Both the position numbers and the translations under genes were made by a program. Below, in pieces: positions 1 to 14,600 of a DNA stretch of 64,000 nt. Origin of the DNA: Yuukianura sp. NJ FZ-2021 (taxonomy: Eukaryota); NCBI GenBank assembly GCA_046563655.1, contig CM102287.1:1302001-1366000 (forward strand), in the 5' to 3' direction. How positions within the stretch are numbered: position 1 is the first letter of the stretch; each line of letters starts with the position of its first letter. The notes beneath the pieces are model-generated. The model was given only the letters and a program-made list of their open reading frames with translations. It made no database searches and was not told the DNA's origin.

Positions 1-681
1 CCCACAGCGGCTGGACTGTTCAGTGGACAATTTGAAAACAAAGAGAGAAGCCAGTGTTTGTTCTGTGAGAAGCAGCATCCCTCTAAAGAGTGCTTCAAGG
101 CACAGAAGATGACATTAGAAGACAGAAAGGAAGTCATCAAGAAGAAGGGTGTTTGTTTTTCGTGTTTAAAAGGCGGACATAGGGCTAATAAGTGTCGTAG
201 TACTCCTCAGTGCCTTGTCTGCGGTAAGAAGCATTTGGTTCTACTCTGCCCCCAGATCTCATCGTCATCCAAAGGTTCCAGTGATGGAAAAGACAAAGAT
301 GATGGGAAGAAAAATCAGACTGTGCTCTCAAGTCTCAACTGTACCAGCGAAGTCGTACTCCAGACGCTGATCGTGCAGTTGGAGAATCCAGTGAGCCATA
401 AGAAGAAGAACGTTCGTGTTCTACTCGACTGCGGGAGTCAGAAGTCATACATCCTAGATTGTACGGCCAAGGAGCTGGATCTGGATCAGAAGGACACCGT
501 GGTCATGAATCATTCATTGTTTGGAGGGACAAATGTCGTAGGGAATAAGCATTCAATCTACAAGGTTCTAATCGGCAGTGTTTATTCTAAGTTTTCAGTT
601 CGTCTCCTTCTCCTGGACCAGCATCAGATCTGCGGAGCAATTCCGAGAATTACGCCTGGCCCATGGATGAAGATGCTCAGA
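1..681 (+). CDS. BEL/Pao polyprotein, N-terminal part: gag zinc knuckles and aspartic protease (open from the window start, cut by the insertion)
   Basis: Frame is open from position 1. Motifs CLFCEKQHPSKEC, CFSCLKGGHRANKC, CLVCGKKHLVLLC, VVLQTL and VLLDCGSQKSYI. Removing 682-6891 rejoins it in frame as ...PWMKMLR|DRGIVLNDFDPK. Confidence 0.92.
676..681 (+). repeat. 6-bp target-site duplication, left copy (CTCAGA)
   Basis: Identical to 6886-6891 and directly abuts the TIR. Confidence 0.95.
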
Positions 682-1825
682 AGCTATACTGAGTGGTAGA
701 GAAATTGTCGTGTTTTCAAAATGGCCGCCGTCCTTATCAGCTATTGCATCTGCATAAGACGTTTTTTGCTCATGCGCAAAAAACGTTTTTTTGCGCATGA
801 CGTCATCACCCCCCCACTTCCGCACCCCCCATACCCCCCACTATATATCCCTCCCCCCTATATCCCCCCCCCCTCACGTGACCCCGCCCCACATACAAAA
901 AAAAATACAACTGAAAATTTTGGCAACAATGGAAATTTGACAACAATGTATTTTTTTGAAATTTTTAAAGTAAAAAATATTTTGAAAAAAAATATTTTTT
1001 TTTTAAATTTTAAAATTGAAAAAAAAAAATTAAATTAAAAATTCAAATTTCTAAAAAACAAAAGTTCCCCAGATTACCCCAACCCCAAATTTCAAGGTCA
1101 CGCCAATTTTTTCAAGGTCATGCGCGCCCTTTGCATTGGCATATGCATTTGTTTAAGGTCATGCGCGCCCATTTGCAATTTCATGTAAATTGTTCAAGGT
1201 CATTTCAATTTTTTTCAACGTCAGGAGAGCATTTTGAAATTACAAAGTCCCGGGAACCCTTTGCTGGGATCCCGGGACAAAGATCAAGTATGGTGCATGG
1301 GCGGTACATTCGGCTGGTCAGAGGATTAGTGGGGTGCCACTCGGCCACTGCCAAAACAGACCGCAAACCACTTCCGGTTTGCCTGCCAAAGCAAACCGCA
1401 AACCACTTCCGGTCAACTTGCCCGTGCACATGCACGTACAAATCCACTTGAATTTTCACTTGGTTTGCAAAACAACGTCAAGGTCAAAGGTCAAACCGAG
1501 TGACGCGTCAGTGCTAGACGCGTCACAATAGGTCTAATAGACTTGTCACTACGCTCGGGTGCGTGGCTAGCCGCCGGACTCTTGAGCCAATCAGCCTTGA
1601 GCATTTCAAAAGTGGGCGTGGCTCGAGGAAATGGAGACATTTGATTGGTCGAGACTTGCCGCTACACTGGGGGGTGTGGCCAACTCTGGCCAATGTGCGT
1701 TTACCATTTCAAAAAGGGGAGTGGCCTCAGAAAATGGAGACATTTGATTGGTCGACAACACGCGAGCGCACAATATAGTATTGCCATTTCCTGCTTAAAC
1801 TCAAACAAGTCGCCCGGGCGGACTG
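682..1825 (+). repeat. Left terminal inverted repeat (~1.14 kb)
   Basis: Reverse complement of 5713-6885. Near-continuous match to about 1757, a short divergent block, then a match to 1825 (cctgcttaaactca...gtcgcccgggcggactg). Mirrored ORFs in the track (1563+/5997-, 1459-/6101+) confirm it. Confidence 0.95.
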
Positions 1826-1948
1826 TTTATACACAAAATGGTCATGCTTACTTGTCGGTGGTTACATTGCGACTGTCCCATCTCCACCCCTTGCCACGCG
1901 ACCCCTGCAGTTTTTGCAGTTTTTTACGGTGACGTCATCGGCTGTGCC

Positions 1949-1985
1949 TATATAAGGCCGTGACGTTGCCACAAGCGGCTCAGTG
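1949..1985 (+). promoter_or_regulatory. TATA box (TATATAAG) and TCAGT initiator upstream of the minor capsid gene
   Basis: TATATAA at 1949 and TCAGT at 1980, about 31 bp apart, which is canonical spacing. TGACGTCA lies at 1930-1937. Confidence 0.65.
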
Positions 1986-2076
1986 TTTCACTAGCTTCTG
2001 CATCGGTAACATTACCTTCTCCTACAAAAGTTTAAGTGAAAGTGTTAATTTGTTATTGTTCAAATCGTCGTCAGCA

Positions 2077-3147
2077 ATGGCCGTCGTTGTTAAACCCAGT
2101 TCGCGATACATTATCGTGGATAGTGCTTTAAACAGCAGGTTTTACCCAGAAAATAAACCAAACGAGTTTCGTGCCAATTTGGATCCTGTGCTTGATGGCT
2201 GGAAGCAACCACTGGAGGTTGCCATTTCTGGAATGCACTACACTCCAGCACCCAAAACCCAACGTAACATTTTTGGCCACAGTGAGGGTGACAATGTCAT
2301 AAACGTAACCGAGCACTTGGAGGCGACGGTTACAATCTCAAAAATCGATGGAATAATAAAGTTTTTCGGTCATGTCAACAAGGAATTGAAAAAATTTGAC
2401 CGAAAAATTGTCATATCATACACAAACAAGGTCTTTTCACTTACCAACGACGAAAAGGACCACGTGGTTACCATGACGGCCGAGTATGCTCGAGCCTTTG
2501 GCTTTGATACCAACACGTTCCCAAATGGAGTGACGCATGGCCATGAATATTCCGAAGCTGTTTTTGACGCAATTGATCCAACAATTAACATGACGCTCCA
2601 CATTTTCCAAGACAAGGGCAACTTGGCAACCGTGGTGGAACCAAAAGAAAAGACGGTGGAAGGCCTGATTCAGGCCATGAACGCCGCCTTGGCTCCATTT
2701 CAAATTACATTCAAGTACTCTGAGGATGAGGCTGTACTCAAATACACCCGAGAATCTACACCCAATTACATTACGACCCTCTCGCCACTTTTGGACAAAA
2801 TATTTGGACTGCCAATGGGAGCCGCATTCAAGGGATTTAGCCAAACGAATCCAGCCAAGGCCGAAATTGATCTCGAAGTGACGTCAAAACATCTCCTTGT
2901 CGTGTGCGATCTTGCGGAATATACCCAGTTTGGAGACAAGGTGCTGCCGTTGATTGGAATATTCCCACAAGGCGATCAGGATGGCAAACCAGTCGACTTG
3001 AAAGTCAATGTACCGCGTTATTTTGCGGTAAAAGGACAGTCGATGATCAATTCCATTTACGTTCAACTTTTGGACGAAAACCTGGCACCAATTCCTGAAG
3101 CACACAGCGCAACCCAACTTGTTCTTCACGTCAGAAAAGCCGCCTAA
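2077..3147 (+). CDS. Polinton/adintovirus-like minor capsid protein (penton), ~356 aa from ATG 2077
   Basis: N-terminus YIIVDSALNSRFYPENKPNEFRANL...LEVAISGMHY and C-terminus HLLVVCDLAEYTQFGDKVLPLI...PRYFAV...INSIYVQLLDENLAPIP...LVLHVRK match the Polinton minor capsid pattern as recalled. The track's GTG start at 1960 lies upstream of the Inr. Confidence 0.8.
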   Translation: MAVVVKPSSRYIIVDSALNSRFYPENKPNEFRANLDPVLDGWKQPLEVAISGMHYTPAPKTQRNIFGHSEGDNVINVTEHLEATVTISKIDGIIKFFGHVNKELKKFDRKIVISYTNKVFSLTNDEKDHVVTMTAEYARAFGFDTNTFPNGVTHGHEYSEAVFDAIDPTINMTLHIFQDKGNLATVVEPKEKTVEGLIQAMNAALAPFQITFKYSEDEAVLKYTRESTPNYITTLSPLLDKIFGLPMGAAFKGFSQTNPAKAEIDLEVTSKHLLVVCDLAEYTQFGDKVLPLIGIFPQGDQDGKPVDLKVNVPRYFAVKGQSMINSIYVQLLDENLAPIPEAHSATQLVLHVRKAA

Positions 3148-3164
3148 ATTCTTCAAAAATCAGT

Positions 3165-3199
3165 TATAAAAGGTCACAAAAGGCAAAATCTGATCAGTT
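3165..3199 (+). promoter_or_regulatory. TATA box (TATAAAAG) and TCAGTT initiator for the small basic ORF
   Basis: TATAAAA at 3165 and TCAGTT at 3194, 29 bp apart. Confidence 0.65.
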
Positions 3200-3334
3200 G
3201 ACGTCTGACTTTCGACCAAGCAACACGAAAACAGTGCAAAAACAGTGTAAAATTTACACCAAAACCCTTAAAAACGTCGTGAGTATCAGCTTTGTGCTCG
3301 TTAAAGCAACATCTCGTGCGTTCTTTGTGTGAAA

Positions 3335-3742
3335 ATGGAACTTGGCGAACCAGAAAACTCTGATTTTAGCAACAATAGTGGCAGTTTGACTCCAGAAAAT
3401 GGCGAAAACAAGTGCGACAATGCAAGTTTAGCCACAAAAACGATATCATCAACTGCTATTGCTCAAAAAATGTCCGCGGAATTGCCCAAAAAGAGGGCAA
3501 GAAAGCGCTCACAGCCCAAAAAAGTGTCAGATTTGAAGCAAAATTTACCCAAAAATGGGTCCAGCAGTACAGATTCAGACGAAAATCTTTGCAACAATTG
3601 CAGAAAAATGCAAATTTCTAAAGACAATAGCAGAAAACCAGAGAAATCTGCCAAAAGTGGGCGAAAAAGGCGTAAAATTGTTGCAAAATTGCAAAATTTG
3701 GCGCAAAAGGCTGTAAAAGGGAGCCTATTTCAGAACAATTAG
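3335..3742 (+). CDS. Small Lys/Arg/Ser-rich protein (135 aa) of unknown function, with NLS-like basic clusters
   Basis: AAAATGG start context downstream of a TATA/Inr pair. Contains PKKRARKRSQPKK and GRKRRK. Lies between the two capsid genes. Confidence 0.55.
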   Translation: MELGEPENSDFSNNSGSLTPENGENKCDNASLATKTISSTAIAQKMSAELPKKRARKRSQPKKVSDLKQNLPKNGSSSTDSDENLCNNCRKMQISKDNSRKPEKSAKSGRKRRKIVAKLQNLAQKAVKGSLFQNN

Positions 3743-3887
3743 TCAGTCTGCGTTTGCATTTCGACGAGTAAACACGTGTCTAGTGCTCAGTGCTACCCCA
3801 AAATTTACACGTTAACCCTTGAAAATAGTGCCCAGTCGTCATTTGGAAACCGTCAGAGCAACATCTTGTGCGTGTTTTTGTGCTAAA

Positions 3888-5200
3888 ATGGAGGTTAATG
3901 TGCCAGTGAATTCGAAATTGGTCACCTCAAGTGCCAAATTCGACTTGTTTCAAAGCCAACCACGGATGTGTCGTTCATTTTGGGCAATTATCTAGTAGTG
4001 AAACCCTTTTCACCAGCGACAGACCCTAATCCAATCTACTTTCGAGTGGAACAGCCAGCGCATGGTTACTTGGACCTGTCCGATTCTTTTTTAAAACTAG
4101 TGTTTTCAATTAAAAAAAGTGATGGAACTCCACTCACCGATGCAGACCAAATTGCGCCTGAAAATTTATTTTTTCATGCGTTCATTGAGGATTTCAAAGT
4201 TTTGGTCAACAATTGCCAAGTAGTTGCTCAAGGATACCGAGCATACTCGTATGAAGCCTGGATGCTCACTCAACTCTTTAACGGCATTGGAACCAAATGC
4301 AGCACATTGTCAAAAGTGGGTTATTATGCCGGAGATGTCATGGACACCTACGACGACACAAACCCGAGTTACAAGGCGCGATTAAACTTGGCAAAAAATA
4401 GTCAAACGTTTGAAATGATTGGGCGCCCGTTTGTCGGCCTATTTACGACCAAAAAGTTATTCCCGCACAACACTCAATTCTATTTTGAAATTAAAAAGAG
4501 CGATGCATCCTTTTGCTTGCGAGGACCGGCCACTACCACCAAATACAAAATTACAGTGGAATCGGCCGAGTATTATATTCGCCAAGTGAATCCCAGCGAA
4601 AAAATAGTGACTCAGATCCGGCAAGGGTTTGCAAAAAACAAAGTGGCCAACTATTCATACGATCAGGCCCACATGCGTTTAGAATATGTGTCGAAAAATC
4701 TCAGTTCGGTTGACTTAACAAATGCCTACCACAGTACTATGCACCCAAAACTTCTTTTAGTTGGCATTTTGGAACTAGAAGTTTACGAAGGGAAAAAAGT
4801 TGAAAAGTCACCATTCAACTTTAAACCCCACGGTGTTAGCCGTCTGTTGCTAAAATTTGAGCAAAAGCCCTTGGTCTATCAAGAAATGATTTTCAAAGAC
4901 AAAAATTACATGCTTGCCTATCACAATTTGTGCAAGTTGGTTTCTCGTCAGACTGAAGGAAATGACATTTCCTACGACAAGTTTGTAAACGGAAATGCAA
5001 TCTTTGCATTTGACGTCCAGGATTTGTGGACTGACGGATACAATGCGACCAGATCTGGACAATACGGATTGGAAATTGATTTTGAAACCCCGACGACAAA
5101 GGATTTGGTGATTCTCATCGTCGGAATCGAAGACGAAACTTTACAAATTGATGGAAATAGAATTACTGGACTTGCATCCAACAAAAAAATATTCTTTTAA
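3888..5200 (+). CDS. Polinton/adintovirus-like major capsid protein (double jelly-roll, hexon-like), ~437 aa with a 1-nt frameshift near 3960
   Basis: Motifs FDLF..PT, GYLDLSDSFLKL, APENLFFHAF..F.V.VN, YSYEAW, SPFNFKP and GNAIFAFDV fit the Polinton MCP (PY) pattern as recalled. The N-terminus MEVNVP...KFDLFQSQP from ATG 3888 is in a different frame from ORF 3968-5200. Confidence 0.85.
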
Positions 5201-5273
5201 AAATAACTTTATTTTTAACCTTCATTAGCCCTGTCTCAACTCTTTTTTGTTGTATACTTTTCAAAATTTGAAA

Positions 5274-5415
5274 AATAAACTAATCTCCTCATTGAAAAAA
5301 AACATGATGTCTTTTATAAATAAAAGTAGAAAAAAATGAAAAAAAAAAAACAAAACAAAAAAAAAAACAGAAATTAAAAAAAAAACGAAAAAAAGGACAA
5401 AAAAGAAACCAAAAA
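5274..5415 (+). other. Putative polyadenylation signals (AATAAA at about 5274 and 5318) and an A-rich tract after the major capsid gene
   Basis: Direct motif reading. Confidence 0.45.
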
Positions 5416-5712
5416 CTGCATTCATGTTTTTGGTTTTCCATCAAGTTGTTGGTGTTGGCACAAATTGCCGATTATGTTTTATACGGTTATTCAAAGTCAG
5501 GTTCATGCCGTACGTTTTTCTGATAAGACGTTTCCGTTATTTAATTCAACATAGTTGTGTAAGCGTAAGCTTGCGGGCATACCAGTGACAAACGCCAAGC
5601 CTGCGTTTGTATTGTTCCGTAAATGCGTGAGCTACATAAAAATTATTTGGAGGCAGATTGAATCGAACTCACGGCCCCTACCATAAGATGTAATCGAAAT
5701 GGACGCTATGAC

Positions 5713-6885
5713 CAGTCCGCCCGGGCGACTTGTCTGAGTTTAAGCAGGAAATGACAACACTATGGCTTGAGGGCGGGCCCAATGTGTGGCAATGGCAAGT
5801 TTTGTCGACCAATCAAATGTCTCCATTTTCTGAGGCCACTCCCCTTTTTGAAATGGTAAACGCACATTGGCCAGAGTTGGCCACACCCCCCAGTGTAGCG
5901 GCAAGTCTCGACCAATCAAATGTCTCCATTTCCTCGAGCCACGCCCACTTTTGAAATGCTCAAGGCTGATTGGCTCAAGAGTCCGGCGGCTAGCCACGCA
6001 CCCGAGCGTAGTGACAAGTCTATTAGACCTATTGTGACGCGTCTAGCACTGACGCGTCACTCGGTTTGACCTTTGACCTTGACGTTGTTTTGCAAACCAA
6101 GTGAAAATTCAAGTGGATTTGTACGTGCATGTGCACGGGCAAGTTGACCGGAAGTGGTTTGCGGTTTGCTTTGGCAGGCTAACCGGAAGTGGTTTGCGGT
6201 TTGTTTTGGCAGTGGCCGAGTGGCACCCCACTAATCCTCTGACCAGCCGAATGTACCGCCCATGCACCATACTTGATCTTCTTGGTCCCGGGATCCCAGA
6301 AAAGGGCTCCCGGGACATTTCAATTTCAAAATGCTCGCTTGACTTTGAAAAAAAATTGAAATGACCTTGAACAATTTACATGAAATTGCAAATGGGCGCG
6401 CATGACCTGACGCAAATTCATATGCCAATGCAAAGGGCACGCGCGACCTTGAAAAATTCGGCGTGACCTAGAAATTTGGGGTTGGGGTAATCTGGGGAAC
6501 TTTTGTTTTTTAGAAATTTGAATTTTTAATTTATTTTTTTTTTAATTTTAAAATTTTAAAAAAAAATATTTTTTCTCAAAATATTTTTCACTTTAAAAAT
6601 TTCAACAAATACATTGTTGTCAAATTTCCATTGCCAAAATTTTCATTGTTGTATTTTTTTTTTATGGGGGGCGGGGCCACGTGGGGGGGGGTGGATATAG
6701 GGGGGGGAGGGATATAGAGTGGGGTGGGGGGTGGGGGGTGCGGAAGTGGGGGGGGGGGGTGATGACGTCATGCGCAAAAAAACGTTTTTGCGCATGAGCA
6801 AAAAACGTCTTATGCAGATGCAATTGCTGATAAGGACGGCGGCCATTTTGAAAACACGACAATTTCTCTACCACTCAGTATAGCT
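5713..6885 (-). repeat. Right terminal inverted repeat (~1.17 kb)
   Basis: Reverse complement of 682-1825. Confidence 0.95.
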
Positions 6886-6891
6886 CTCAGA
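6886..6891 (+). repeat. 6-bp target-site duplication, right copy (CTCAGA)
   Basis: Identical to 676-681. Confidence 0.95.
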
Positions 6892-9800
6892 GATAGAGGA
6901 ATTGTGTTGAACGACTTTGACCCGAAGAATCCCGTCGAAATTGAAGTTTTGTTGGGTGCAGACACCATTGGACAATTTCTGACTGGGAAGATCTTTCGTC
7001 TTAAGAACGGGCTGACGGCTACAGAGACAAGATTGGGTTGGACGGTCATGGGAGCTACAGGAAGACAGAGCAATTCTGAAGACGTAGCCATGACTGTGGT
7101 TTCCATGACTATCGCTAGTTCGACAGTCGCCCAGCTTTGGTCTTTGGATGTCCTTGGAATTCGTGACCCCGTGGAGAAGAAGACGCAAGAAGACCGGGAG
7201 AGAGAGGCCATTGAAAATTTCCAGAAGACAGTTACTACAGATCCTGAGGGAAGATACACTGTCTCTCTACCTTGGATCAATGGCTCTCAATCTCTTCCTA
7301 CAAATCGTGCAGTGGCTCAGAAGCGGTTGGAAAACACCACCAGGAAGTTAGTGTCTCTGAATCGGTTCTCAGATTATGACAAAGTGTTTCAGGAATGGGA
7401 ATCAGAGGGCATAATTTCAGTGGTAGAGGACTTAGGTGACAGTCAGAGTGTTCCGTGTCATTATGTTCCTCATCGCGCCGTCTTCAAGGCCAGCTTAACT
7501 ACTCCAGTGCGTCCAGTGTTTGACGCTTCCTGCAAGGTCGGGAGGAATCCGTCACTTAATGAGTACTTAGAGAAAGGACCGAATCTGCTTGAACTTCTTC
7601 CTTCAATTTTACTTCGTTTCCGGATGGGGAAGATTGGTGTGACAGCAGATATCCGTAAGGCCTTTCTAATGATCAATGTGAAAGAAAGTGATCGTGATTT
7701 CCTGCGATTCTTATGGTGGGAGGACAAGGAACGACAAAAAGTGAAAGTGTTTCGGCACAACCGAGTCGTTTTTGGGATGAACTGTAGTCCATTCCTTCTA
7801 GGAGCAGTCGTCTTCCACCATTTGAACCAGCATCGGTGTGAAAATCCCGAGGTCAAACTCTTTGACCCCTTAGGACTTTGGACTCCAGTGGTCACTTTAC
7901 CGAAAGTACTTCTTCAGCAAGCATGGAACGAGAACAAGACTTGGGATGAGGAAGTATCTACAGAAATGAAGACAGAATTCCTCAGTTGGTCCAAGGAATT
8001 CGCAGAAGTCAGTGACAAAGTTCAACTACCTCGAGACTGTACCAGTGGAACAACCAGAGACAACCGAAAGATCCAAATTCATGTGTTTGGCGATGCAAGT
8101 AAGAAGGCTTACGCAACAGTGGTGTTTCTTCGCATTCAAACTCAAGACGGTGTCAAAATCCGATTTATTCAAGCGAAATCAAGAGTAGCACCACTGAAAC
8201 CAACCACAATCCCCAGATTGGAGCTTCTTTCGTGTTGCATTTCAGCCAGACTGGTGACAGCAATTAAGTCAGCATTAGGCCTCGAAGACGACGTTCGGAC
8301 TTTCCTTTGGACGGATTCCAGCACGGCCCTGTCGTGGATTCGCCGAAGTGACGAGTGGGGAACGTTCGTGGGGAATAGGGTCAAGGAGATCCTGAAGCTG
8401 ACAAAAGTCGAAGACTGGAACCACATTCCGGGTTTGGAAAATCCGGCAGATCTGCCATCCAGGGGGACTTCTCCGACCAGGTTCGTGTTGTCGCGATGGT
8501 GGGAGGGACCTGATTGGTTGAAATTGGAAAAGGAGATGTGGCCCAGATCAGAATCATCGGTGGACGAAGATGCAGTCAATCAGGAGCGTAAGAAGAGTAT
8601 CGCGACACTCACGAACATAACGACTCCTGCGCCTGTCTCGTCACCATGGTATGTCACCAAGTACTCGTTTCATCAGACTCTTCGTGTTTTTGCTTACGTC
8701 ATCCGGTTTGTGAGTCTTTTGAAGAAGGAATCCAGAGAGAAGTCCGAGGTTCCTACCATCACAGAACTGGAAGAGGCAGAACGAAGACTGATCATGATCA
8801 TTCAAGAGGAATCTTTTCCCATGGACAAAAGTGTCATTCAGGGTTTGAGAGTGCAAGTGGACTCAGATGGACTACTAAAAGTGAAAACCAAAGTGACTAA
8901 TCGAGTTGACACAGACACTTTTAGGAAACCAATTTTACTTCCACATTCTCATCCCATTGTCAATCTCATCATCCGGGACACTCACATCTTCAACGCACAC
9001 GGAGGAGCACAGCTGATGATGGCCAAGTTAAGAGAAAAGTACTGGATCATCCAGGGAAGAAGGGCCATCAAGAAAGTCATAACCAAGTGCATCGTGTGTA
9101 AGAGGTTTGATGGTAAGACTGTTGAAGTTGTGGCTAGTGCTCTACCGGAACCGAGGGTAAGGGAGGCCAGTGCCTTTGAAGTGACTGGAGTGGATCTGGC
9201 TGGCCCCTTAACTCTAAAGAACAGGAAGAAAGCATACATTGTCATGTTTACTTGTGCAGTGTTTCGGTGTGTTCATCTGGAGGTGACCGAATCATTGTCT
9301 ACTGATGACTTTCTTCTCTCATTTATCAGATTCTGCAAAAGGAAACAACGGCCATCGATCGTCTACTCCGACAACGGAACGAACTTCGTCGGAGCAGTGA
9401 ATCTGTTTAAGGAGATCGACTGGGACCTTGTTCAAGAGAAGACGCAGAAACAGAAAATCAAATGGATCTTCAATCCACCTTCCGCACCGTGGTGGGGCGG
9501 ATGGTGGGAGAGGCTCATCAAGAGCACCAAGGATCTTCTCCGTAGAATGCTTGGATTCCAGAAGTTGACTTACGTTCAATTGGAAACAGCCTTGTGCGAA
9601 GTGGAAGCTGCGGTGAACCACAGACCATTGACGTACGTCACAGAAGATCAAGATGACTTTGTACCTTTGACCCCGGCCATGTTCATCCATAATCTTCCGA
9701 ATTGCGAAGTGCCGGAGGCTCAACTGATCATACCGAATACCCTTGGACAAGAAAAGAAGTGGCTGGACCAGTTACTGCAGGAAGTGAAACAGCGTTTTCG

Positions 9801-10236
9801 TTCTGAGTACTTGGGTCAGTTAGTCCAACGGGGCAAGGAACAGAAGACCAGGACTTTCCGGATTGGAGAAATCGTGCTCATCGAAGTGGACAATAAGAAG
9901 CGGATTTTCTGGCCAATGGGGAGGATTCTGGAGCTGCTTCCTGGGAAGGATGGAGAAATTCGGGTAGCCAGATTGAAGACGAAGAATGGAGAGCTGCTAC
10001 GTCCCATCCAACGACTCGTGCCATTGGAATTGAGACATGACGAGATACCGGAGCCACCAGTCAAGACAGCCGAGAGTTCCAACGTCATCGACAACCAATC
10101 TGCAGCGGAAAGTGACAGCGACACTTACTGCGAGTGTCTGCCGTGCCAAGACGAAGACGAGGTCACCACTGCAGAACCAGAACAGACTACAAGAAGCGGA
10201 CGGACCATTCGGAAACCGATTCGCTATGGTATTTGA
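6892..10236 (+). pseudogene. BEL/Pao pol: end of protease, RT with internal deletion, RNase H, integrase (HHCC, DDE core) and C-terminal DUF5641-like region
   Basis: Motifs IEVLLGAD, ETRLGW, GRYTVSLPW, HRAVFK, FDAS, DASKKAY, H...HGG...CIVC, GVDLAGP, YSDNGTNF, APWWGGWWERLI and WPMGRI...PGKDG.IR...RPIQRLVPL. It is separated from gag by the insertion and lacks YxDD. Confidence 0.92.
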
Positions 10237-11177: not shown

Positions 11178-11627
11178 ATGGAGAGAGAGCACGAGAGAGC
11201 CAAGAGAGCACGAGACATGAAAAGACTGGATGTTGCGGATCTTACTGCAAATTTAGAATCCGAACTCCAGAGGGAATCGATTTCCGAAGATGACGTCATC
11301 GCTGCAGTGTCAATGCTAGATGACGCAATGAACTCGTTGGTGGATCTGAATGAACAAGTGGAGACTTTTCTTTTGGATGATGAGTCGACTTCGACCGAGA
11401 TGTTGGATACGGAGCGTCGTGCCAACAATGACATCAAAAGAAGAGCCACTTTGATGAAGATTAAGGCAGAACGGACACTGCATCCGCCAGTCAAGTCACA
11501 GAATCGTTCGTCAAATGATGATGGTGCATCGTCCACCAGCCGACACAGAAAGATGAAGTTACCGAAGACAGAGTTACGGAAGTACTCTGGAGAACTGGTC
11601 GACTGGATTGGATGGTGGTCACAATTC
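11178..11627 (+). pseudogene. N-terminus of a second BEL gag, truncated at the start of the DUF1759-like domain
   Basis: Coiled-coil-like N-terminus, then MKLPKTELRKYSGELVDWIGWWSQF (BEL gag LPKxxLxxFxG...W..FW..F motif), then an abrupt switch to AT-rich LINE sequence. Confidence 0.85.
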
Positions 11628-14600
11628 AATTGTTCTTGATCGTATTTATGTAAGTGCCCAGCTTATTAGCAACGTTAAATTTGTAGACATTTTACCGTCA
11701 TTTTCCGATCATAAAATGATTTGTACCAAATTTAATTTTCTACACCAAAATTCTTTTCGAATCTGGAAATTTCCTAATTACATATTAAGTGATGACTACC
11801 TCATCGCCCAAATTAAACAACTACTAAATGATTTTTTAAATTTGAATGTGAAGACGTTCACTTCTTATGAACTTTTAAAGTGGAAATTAAAGAAATGCGC
11901 AATTTCTTTTTTAAACTACAAACATTTCGTAAAAATTTCAAATTATAATGAGATGAAGTTTCTAATGAAAAACAATCATAACAAACTCTTTAACCTTATA
12001 ACAGATAACGAACGTTTCGAAGATAAATTTGAATATACTCCAAAGAAAATATTTAACGTTAACTGTGAAGTTTCTGTTGATTCGGTGTTCAAAACTTATT
12101 CTGATGAAACTAAAGCGAAATTATTTTTTGACTTCTTTTCAGCAAAATTTAAAACCGAAAATGTTCAAACCAACGTAAATGACAACTTTTTCAAACTTTT
12201 ACCAAAATTGAATGATGACCAAATCGATTATATATCTCAAGACATTTCCTCTGAGGAAATCAAAATTGCCATTTCCCAACTAAAAAATGATACCTGTCCT
12301 GGTCTTGATGGGATTTCAAGTGAATTGATTAAAACATTCACACCGGAATTTACTAAAATATTTCAATGGTTATGGAGCGAATGCATAATTCGCGATGAAA
12401 TGCCTGACTCTCTTAAATGTGGAGTCGTTACACTGATTTATAAAAAAGACAATCCCACTGATCTCTCCAATTGGAGACCAATTATTATGTCAAATTCCGA
12501 TTATAAAGTTTTCTCTACGATTTTTAAAAATAGAATTTCAAAATATCTTGATTATTTGATTTCTCCTGCTCAAACCTGCAATGTTCCGAGAAGGAATATT
12601 TTCCAGAATTTAAAATTTTTGATTGAAAATATTAATGATAAAAACAATGGCGCAATTCTTGCAATTGATCAAGAATCTGCATTTGATAATATAAACCACG
12701 ATTATTTATTTTCAATTTTAAAGTATTATGGATTCCCCCAGAGCTTTGTCAACTCAATAAAGATACTTTACAAAAACAGTTTTGTCCATGTAAACTATGG
12801 GGATGGCTTAACGAAAAAAATTAGAATTGGCAAAGGCGTAAAACAAGGTGATCCGATTGCGTCTTCTTTGTATATTCTTTGCTTTGAACCTTTGGTTCGA
12901 AACCTATCCGAAAAGTTAATTAAAATTGCACCAAGTCCTTTCCTAAATTATCCCAACTCGAACATTAGTGCTTATGCTGATGATACAACTATTTTTATAT
13001 CAGTACTTAGCCAATTTGATGTTGTCGTGAAAGAATTTGAAACGTATGGAAAATTTTCCGGTGGAAAAATTAAAGATTCCAAAACTGAAGTTCTATTTCT
13101 TGGTAATTGGAAATTGTTAAACATACAAAGGAACTTTAAAAAAGTAAAACAAATTAAAATCCTGGGTGTTGTTTTTGGTGAAAATTTGGAAAATAATTGG
13201 GACTCTTTGATAACAAAAATAAAGTTAAAAATTGAGACATTTAAATTAAAGTACCCGAATTGTAGCCTTTTCTTAAAATCTAAAATCTTAAATTTGTTTG
13301 TTCTCCCAATTACCAGTTTCCTTTTAAAAGTCCTGAAACCTACTGAGAATTTTGTCAAAAATCTTGAAGATATTGTTTCTGATTACATCTGGGAAAGAAA
13401 AAGAAATTGGATTAAAAAACCTTTCATTTATTTACCGAAGTCCTTTGGTGGACTTGGGGTTAAACACCCCAAAGTTCAGAGTTATATATTTCAAATTCGA
13501 CATTTAATAGATTCAACTCAAATCACTGATAATCATTATTATTTGAAAGAATCTAAGAAGGATGCCTTTAAAATCTTGTTTGAAAACTCGTATCGAGACG
13601 ACTACTTTTCTGAACTTTGTACAGTGATTCATAAAATCAAATTAAACTTCGAAGAAATACCAAAAATCTTTCTAAGTAGAATTTGTATACAAAACAGATC
13701 GATTTTTCCGAGACAATTTAAAATACTTGAATCCTTTGGAATCAAGTCTATTGATAATGTTTCCACAATTAAGGATTTGACTATTCCTATTTTTCGCAAA
13801 CGAACATTTGAATCTGAAATTAAAACATTTGAAGAAGATTTAAAGTATTTTAAACAGAACTTATCAAAAAAATGTGAAAAAGTAAAGTTGAAAGCGGTGA
13901 ACCCAGTGTTTGAAGTTTATGTTTCGTTCAGCAACACAAACGAATATCTAACAACGTTCTTCTCACTATTTCAATACGAGAAATTTTCAATAACTGACAA
14001 ACAAAAATTAAAATCGAAGAAGTGGGAAAGACTAAAAAATGAGTTACTTCCTGTCCATATCAAATCTCTAATTTGGAGATTTTGGCATAATGCCATTATT
14101 TCTTTTGACATCGCCAAAAATATGGGTTTAATATCGGATGGTTGTTGCCCATACTGCCACCAATCCAAGACTACGTGTTTACACTTAGTCTTGTGCAAGT
14201 CAACGAAACAATTGTGGGAATATGTTCATTCATTATTGCAAAAATGAAATTCAAAGGATCAGATATACGATAAGACGTTTGGTTGTAAGAACGATTTCGC
14301 GAATTATCTTATTTTTTGTGCAATAAGTATTCTATACAATAGATTTATTTATAATATTAATTCTGGTAAAACAGATTTTGATATTTTAGGTAAATATAAG
14401 CAATTCTTATTCCAAGAAATTTATTTAAGTTTCCATAGTTATAAAAGTAGAAATGATTTAGCAGCATTTAGAACACTTTGGTCTGAAGCAAAATTTATCG
14501 AAGTTAATCATAATACTGTTGAGATTAAGCTATAAAAATTTTAATTTAATTTACTCTAATAATCAAATTAATGTATCTTAAGTAAATCCAACCATATTTC

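Follow-up and report, generated by a model that had tools for sequence, protein, structure and literature searches.

What is a mobile element that has the ends of a Polinton/Maverick, carries genes for virion proteins and encodes none of the enzymes by which this group is defined, and how did it come to lie where it is found? The question is raised by positions 682–6885 of a 64,000-nucleotide (nt) stretch of Yuukianura sp. NJ FZ-2021 (GenBank assembly GCA_046563655.1, contig CM102287.1, positions 1,302,001 to 1,366,000 of the forward strand), which is hereafter called the window. Polintons are defined by a protein-primed polymerase and an rve integrase, as stated in the passages of PMC5499653 that deal with their definition. 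The element, 6.2 kb long as a whole, has neither, and we therefore do not class it among the Polintons sensu stricto. It has long terminal inverted repeats (TIRs), a target-site duplication (TSD) of 6 base pairs (bp), and genes for a penton and a major capsid protein (MCP), and is probably a non-autonomous, adintovirus-like derivative of a Polinton/Maverick that was mobilised in trans. Because no polymerase, integrase, packaging ATPase, or protease is encoded, we infer that its copying and insertion would have depended on an autonomous relative; an earlier note on this DNA, made from its letters alone, had argued for replication and integration in trans, and the missing enzyme genes support that argument.

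Ends, target site, and empty site of the insertion

The element is inserted into the protease region of a BEL/Pao retrotransposon. The features that delimit it are as follows:

Positions 1–681, plus strand: upstream part of the host BEL/Pao element, with gag zinc knuckles and the start of the aspartyl protease (from the reading frame; the Pfam aspartyl-protease matches are weak, 0.0053 and 0.018).
Positions 676–681, no strand: left copy of the TSD, CTCAGA (letters read directly; the empty-site joint shares 6 letters).
Positions 682–1831, plus strand: left TIR, starting 5'-AG (repeat search, blastn, global alignment, motif positions).
Positions 1539–1755, plus strand: two tandem subrepeats of about 103–114 nt within the left TIR, each with CCAAT/ATTGG boxes (blastn self-match of 73.7% over 114 columns; mirrored at 5805–6021).
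Positions 5707–6885, minus strand: right TIR, ending CT-3' (repeat search, blastn, global alignment).
Positions 6886–6891, no strand: right copy of the TSD, CTCAGA (letters read directly; empty-site joint).
Positions 6892–10236, plus strand: pol of the host BEL/Pao element in frame, with Peptidase_A17, reverse transcriptase, integrase zinc finger, and DUF5641 (frames, Pfam).

The element starts with 5'-AGCTATACTGAGTGG... and finishes with ...CCACTCAGTATAGCT-3', that is, with AGCT at either extremity. Vertebrate Mavericks have perfect 6-bp TSDs and end motifs of the AG type and CT type, according to the passages of PMC8097293 that describe their termini. Only the first AG and the last CT are present here, and the (AG)3 or (AGT)2 repeats of vertebrate Mavericks are absent from the ends. 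The arms are about 1.15 kb long (1150 and 1179 nt). A repeat search returned 13 inverted pairs, among them 682–791 with 6776–6885 (110 nt, 96%) and 1280–1761 with 5799–6280 (482 nt, 99%), and blastn paired element positions 1–1150 with window positions 6885–5707 at 92.3% over 1188 columns. When the two arms are aligned globally (1087 matches, 64 mismatches, 45 gap columns), they prove to be near-identical in the outer 100 columns (98 matches) and in columns 601–1100. Most of the differences fall in columns 101–600 (window 782–1280 against 6280–6785), which are of low complexity, in part C-rich and in part A/T-rich. Within the window, there is one copy of the element.

Within the left TIR are two zones, one C-rich and of low complexity and one A/T-rich, as well as repeated words of the CCGGAAGTGG type (as the complement on the left arm) and CCAAT/ATTGG boxes. 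At 1340–1425 and 6138–6212, CCGGAAGTGG or its complement is paired with a following TTTGCGGTTTG-like sequence. To judge from their letters, these words and the CCAAT/ATTGG boxes look like arrays of transcription-factor sites embedded in the TIRs.

The host frames on both sides match each other in phase. A codon ends at 681, in the frame 1–699, and a codon starts at 6892, in the stop-to-stop frame 6766–10236, so that deletion of 682–6891 fuses the two halves of the host in frame; the downstream frame is matched in Pfam by Peptidase_A17 (7.9e-40), DUF5641, and Integrase_H2C2. The earlier note had described intact AG...CT ends with TIRs of about 1.15 kb, a perfect 6-bp TSD, termini of the Polinton/Maverick type, and an excision that would restore the BEL reading frame. 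All of this is borne out, the ends by the repeat search, blastn, and the terminal letters, the TSD by CTCAGA on both sides, and the excision by codon phases and arithmetic.

The site without the element was found as well. Among contigs from four runs (X1 to X4), a joint from 675 to 6886 that skips 6210 bases and shares 6 letters occurs in one contig each of X1, X3, and X4, with 255, 33, and 255 letters, respectively, on the shorter side. It was not found among the X2 contigs, which reflects absence of cover only. X1 and X3 come from one sample of organism A and X4 comes from organism B in another study, so the empty site is seen in two studies. The TSD and the empty site fit equally well with a different history, namely decay in place, in which a full-length Polinton/Maverick was inserted, its enzyme genes were later deleted at this locus, and the 6.2-kb form never moved. 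On the evidence as a whole, discussed below, we consider this history improbable.

Three virion genes and the search for others

Between the TIRs lie three co-oriented genes, here called open reading frame (ORF) 1, ORF2, and ORF3, together with the following features:

Positions 1930–1955, plus strand: TGACGTCA (at 1930) and TATATAA (at 1949) upstream of ORF1, a TATA/CRE pair and candidate core promoter (motif positions).
Positions 2077–3147, plus strand: ORF1, 356 residues, penton (vertex protein, single jelly-roll with an insertion domain; fold matches of the predicted structure).
Positions 3244–3334, plus strand: upstream block ahead of ORF2 (71 identical of 96/98 aligned letters against the block ahead of ORF3).
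Positions 3335–3742, plus strand: ORF2, 135 residues, small basic protein (pI 10.0, 20.7% lysine plus arginine).
Positions 3795–3887, plus strand: upstream block repeated in front of ORF3 (same alignment, 71 identical of 96/98).
Positions 3888–5200, plus strand: ORF3, double jelly-roll MCP gene, frameshifted in the window copy (the ATG frame, from 3888, differs from the long frame 3899–5200).
Positions 5201–5706, plus strand: 3' spacer, A-rich, with a GC fraction of 0.32 and AATAAA at 5274 and 5319 (motif positions; Pfam negative).

None of the three ORFs has a Pfam or PHROGs family above cut-off, and the identification of the two capsid proteins comes from predicted structure. For ORF1, a word-based protein search found no relative, and a full HMMER search gave 84 clusters at E ≤ 0.001, of which 37 had E-values of 1e-10 or lower. 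The ORF1 model, built from 44 aligned sequences, has a predicted local distance difference test (pLDDT) score of 95.2 and a predicted template modelling (pTM) score of 0.84. Searched with Foldseek against the PDB, it matches the pentons of mavirus (1.2e-8) and Sputnik (3.3e-6) and the penton base of adenovirus 2 (1.4e-5); in BFVD, it matches adomavirus LO5 models (7.2e-9 and 1.0e-8), the mavirus minor capsid protein, and adintovirus proteins. The penton relative P0031 has no relative in the viral contig collection.

The ORF3 model, which covers the 413 residues of unaltered translation past the break and draws on 9 sequences (pLDDT 74.7, pTM 0.77), matches the major capsid proteins of iridovirus, mavirus, Sputnik, and PBCV-1 with Foldseek E-values of 5.6e-14 to 1e-11. 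The MCP is thus a double jelly-roll protein and the penton gene lies one gene away from it, which is the arrangement of a Polinton/Maverick virion module. The family PF21738 gave no Pfam match, at E up to 10, for the window ORF3 protein or for three close relatives. Another relative, P0005, matches it at E 0.019 with 14.6 bits, below the gathering cut-off of 27, and PF21738 is present in 15–24% of the members of the nearest ESM Atlas clusters when the ORF3 relative P0001 is the query. The MCP alignment has no relative in the viral contig collection. In a PDB sequence search with the same alignment, a lone match at E 1.9 was rejected as chance.

ORF3 is broken near its 5' end, within the overlap of the two frames at 3899–3995: in alignments, unbroken relatives of 436–437 residues follow the ATG frame over their first residues and the long frame after that. 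In this zone, sister contigs differ by one letter in length, in X1 at the full depth and in X3 at a depth of 30.5 out of 71.8, so that broken and unbroken forms of ORF3 evidently coexist; X2 and X4 contigs do not show the difference. As a separate matter, at window positions 4400–4432, inside ORF3, contigs of all four runs match just about 32 letters and differ from the window to either side, the loose letters being identical from run to run.

ORF2 is assigned by its basic composition and shares a C-terminal motif, K-x-x-K-G-S-x-F, with the small ORFs found at the same position in two related contigs, L001 and L002, described below. It is a candidate core or DNA-condensing protein, and the block shared by the upstream regions of ORF2 and ORF3 is a candidate late-type promoter or leader, both proposals being drawn from the letters. 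Structure prediction, one of the checks that the earlier note had put forward, found jelly-roll capsid folds for ORF1 and ORF3, and with the composition of ORF2 this upholds the note's assignment of a penton-like, a small basic, and a hexon-like protein. The note listed the hexon-like gene as a single ORF and missed its frameshift; its description of the element as complete does not stand, because the hexon gene is frameshifted in the window copy. Its further statement that each ORF has a core promoter of its own fits ORF1, which has TGACGTCA and TATATAA; ORF2 and ORF3 instead share a related upstream block, and all of these promoters are putative.

The element carries no other recognisable gene. 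Pfam detected no remnant of a polymerase, rve integrase, packaging ATPase, adenovirus-type protease, or transposase in its interior. None of the 14 small frames in the spacers and repeats reached a curated Pfam cut-off or proved to be a gene remnant, in line with the earlier observation that scraps of other genes are lacking. The nearby integrase domains are those of the BEL/Pao host. Of the features of a strict-sense Polinton/Maverick, the 6-bp TSD and the long TIRs with ends of the 5'-AG...CT-3' type are therefore present, and the polymerase, rve integrase, ATPase, and protease are absent. Neither ARAGORN nor Rfam, searched at E up to 1, returned a match. Two candidates were set aside: a PrgX_C_TPR match (0.0038–0.0064) that lies below its cut-off, and a stretch of the minus strand at about 5640–5690 that by eye resembles the 3' half of a tRNA and that neither ARAGORN nor Rfam supports.

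This inventory bears on two rival explanations. The first holds that the element does not derive from a Polinton at all, and that a transposon of a different superfamily, moving by cut and paste, picked up a block of viral capsid genes, much as Pack-type elements do with genes of their hosts. No defining Polinton enzyme is present, as such a capture would have it, and superfamilies other than Polintons can also produce 6-bp TSDs. However, kilobase TIRs, AG...CT termini, a 6-bp TSD, and a penton/small-gene/MCP block in Maverick order form the combination of Polintons/Mavericks, and Pfam yielded no transposase remnant on the 14 small frames. We regard a capture of this kind as highly improbable.

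The second rival takes the element as a member of a persistent capsid-only lineage under selection, which would be either a satellite that supplies capsids to a capsid-poor partner or competes for those of the partner, or one segment, carrying the structural genes, of a multipartite Polinton-like virus with parts that share the same ends. The trimming around the trio is neat, with spacers of 245 nt on the left and 506 nt on the right that hold no gene scraps; the upstream block of ORF2 and ORF3 is conserved, and ORF1 has its TATA/CRE pair. These features favour such a lineage, which we nevertheless judge unlikely. The same scrap-free spacers count against decay in place, which needs the trio to have been trimmed by clean deletions to its left and to its right while both TIRs and all three genes were spared.

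Relatives, diverged copies, and the origin of the short form

A metagenome scan yielded two related contigs, L001 (3944 nt, the whole contig) and L002 (1218 nt). L002 repeats the gene order of the window element: the end of a gene for a penton relative (tblastn 1.8e-9; profile 3.3e-13) is followed by a 92-residue basic ORF and by the start of an MCP relative. L001 has a 132-residue basic ORF and a 436-residue MCP relative with 46% identity to the window MCP, and no penton remnant (best profile match E 2.4). Around this gene pair lie imperfect inverted repeats, 3–454 against 3365–3795 (83%) and 78–139 against 3883–3944 (94%), whose imperfection argues against an assembly hairpin. At 540–1000 of L001, the place expected for the penton gene, the sequence is non-coding and A/T-rich, with a block of about 85 nt that is repeated, as seen by eye. 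At the protein level, the clusters looked up for 20 relatives yielded neither an accession nor a name other than 'hypothetical protein'.

Contigs of all four runs align to window positions 1–8000 (628 in X1, 243 in X2, 523 in X3, and 67 in X4), and they cover 30/30 depth bins in X1, X2, and X3 and 29 in X4. The X1 contigs fall into identity classes of at least 99% (199 contigs), 95–99% (210), 90–95% (176), and below 90% (43). The run contigs give no copy numbers, but their spread and identity classes indicate that organism A carries many diverged copies of parts of the element. These copies, and the inverted repeats that enclose capsid-module genes in L001, lend partial support to the view that the element is not an isolated case. 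One X2 contig of 365 nt, with 40 other letters (about 11% diverged), covers 5397–5752 and thus crosses the right inner junction. In organism B, one contig continues from the inner edge of the TIR into 1826–1879.

Both junction contigs speak against decay in place, since they show the right inner junction in diverged sequence and the left inner junction, from the TIR edge to 1879, in organism B, and L001 is a second small inverted-repeat unit elsewhere. The frameshift in the capsid gene is in its favour, as are the surroundings of the locus, where repeats are piled up next to a satellite array that extends over 49 kb or more, and most vertebrate Mavericks are degraded, as reported in the parts of PMC8097293 that treat their state.

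For the capsid-only lineage under selection, the evidence from relatives likewise points both ways. Organism A has many diverged part copies, some of them with an unbroken capsid gene, and the inverted repeats of L001 enclose just a basic ORF and an MCP gene. In published descriptions, the loss runs the other way: PMC4028283, in the passages on gene content, lists nine Polintons that lack the MCP gene and also lack the protease and ATPase genes. Against such a lineage, no partner element or segment was seen, and the window copy, itself broken, has satellite DNA in its flank. The ends of L001 are undefined, and its repeats could stem from nested or rearranged copies. Coding differences do not show purifying selection either, in that the 16 classified among 40 of the differences (there are 823 more) comprise 6 synonymous and 10 nonsynonymous changes. 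That capsid-only inverted-repeat elements such as the window element and the unrelated L001 form a lasting lineage derived from Polintons/adintoviruses, be it of capsid-donating or capsid-stealing satellites or of the structural segment of a split, multipartite Polinton-like virus of animals, appears doubtful to us.

We return to the reading that we consider probable, a non-autonomous derivative mobilised in trans. Its TIRs would carry the replication origin for protein-primed synthesis as well as the ends recognised by an integrase. The enzymes of an autonomous relative in the same cell would have copied the element and inserted it into the BEL/Pao copy, creating the 6-bp TSD. This presupposes that such a helper existed and that the 6.2-kb unit moved as such. 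The retention of the capsid genes would then be an accident of the origin of the short form, as in a defective genome, and not a proven function.

Several observations weigh against this reading. No helper with a polymerase or integrase is found within the 64-kb window, and no listed contig spans the whole 6.2-kb layout. The organism B contig that leaves the TIR through 1826–1879 enters repeat sequence again after 54 letters, and another contig of organism B enters the region upstream of ORF1 at 1946 from unlike sequence. The capsid genes thus occur in other contexts too, and the contig evidence on the repetition of the layout itself is mixed. The uneven divergence of the arms is not explained by simple, uniform decay after insertion; it may stem from recombination among members of the family or from errors where one base is repeated in a row. 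Finally, the gene order of the second module of vertebrate Mavericks is integrase, minor capsid, PW, major capsid, and protease, as given in the part of PMC8097293 on genome organisation. From a parent with this order, two separate deletions would be needed, one to remove the integrase on one side and one to remove the protease and the whole replication module on the other, which would be a less casual event than a single mishap. That the trio could, with such a parent, be isolated only by gene loss on both sides is one reason for keeping the selected capsid-only lineage under consideration.

The window copy itself is dead or dying, because its capsid gene is frameshifted and a large satellite array lies alongside. 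This array, of a 191-bp satellite that is also scored as 381 bp, occupies 14863–63997 and runs to the window end (258.8 copies, 96% matches), which places the element at the edge of heterochromatin-like DNA. Beyond 14532, there is no frame of at least 85 residues in the window. Between the BEL/Pao element and the satellite, a separate reverse-transcriptase element occupies 11557–14247 on the plus strand, with an open frame of 896 residues (RVT_1 3e-32, zf-RVT 2.1e-05). Word depth, which is not copy number, is very high for the BEL/Pao family (about 800–2600 in organism A and about 1200 in organism B), and the capsid element is far thinner than BEL/Pao in organism B, with a word depth of 0–129.

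Taken as a structure, the element is solid and unusual; its biological meaning hinges on a genome-wide census. It reverses the described pattern of loss, in that the virion genes are kept and the enzymes lost while the ends are complete, and its host holds many diverged pieces of it. It would therefore offer a natural test of whether Polinton capsid genes act in trans, and of whether Polintons can divide their functions among several DNA molecules in the manner of satellites and multipartite viruses. Even if it is merely a defective copy, it is still one of a small number of documented Polinton derivatives that are non-autonomous and have defined ends, a TSD, and an empty site.

Comparison with known systems

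In the literature, we found no description of a capsid-only Polinton derivative, within a body of sources whose supplementary tables, for example Table S1 of PMC4028283, may list such forms. Non-autonomous Polintons are apparently absent from the anole genome, according to the passages of PMC3014272 on that genome. The systems closest in structure are the Polintons/Mavericks themselves (polintoviruses, adintoviruses), with which the element shares its long TIRs, AG...CT termini, 6-bp TSD, and an intronless, co-oriented set of penton, small gene, and MCP gene. They differ in size (about 15–20 kb against 6.2 kb) and in having the polymerase, rve integrase, ATPase, and protease that the element lacks. 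Polintons/Mavericks are thought to be viruses, although particles are unobserved in animals, in the account given by parts of PMC8097293.

The late module of adomaviruses and adintoviruses resembles the element in its three-gene order, in the kinds of protein encoded, and in the fold matches of ORF1. The adomavirus order is LO5 (penton), LO6 (small core protein), and LO7 (hexon), and the hexon matches PF21738, as described in the sections of PMC13696692 on the late genes. However, there is no directly detectable sequence similarity to the element, and adomaviruses exist as circular episomes and use different replicases. Virophages and Polinton-like viruses (mavirus, Sputnik, TsV type) are among the best structural matches of both capsid proteins and also have the penton gene upstream of the MCP gene, but their genomes of 14–40 kb include ATPase, protease, and replication genes.

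Capsid-less Polintons, as far as the portions of PMC4028283 on these elements describe them, have lost a whole module, as the element has, and are its mirror image, since they kept the enzymes and lost the virion genes. Internally deleted DNA transposons and defective viral genomes are alike in having kept their ends, lost the genes for movement, and come to depend on a helper, a dependence that we infer for the window element. Such internally deleted derivatives are usually without intact genes, whereas the element retains three genes together with their upstream signals.

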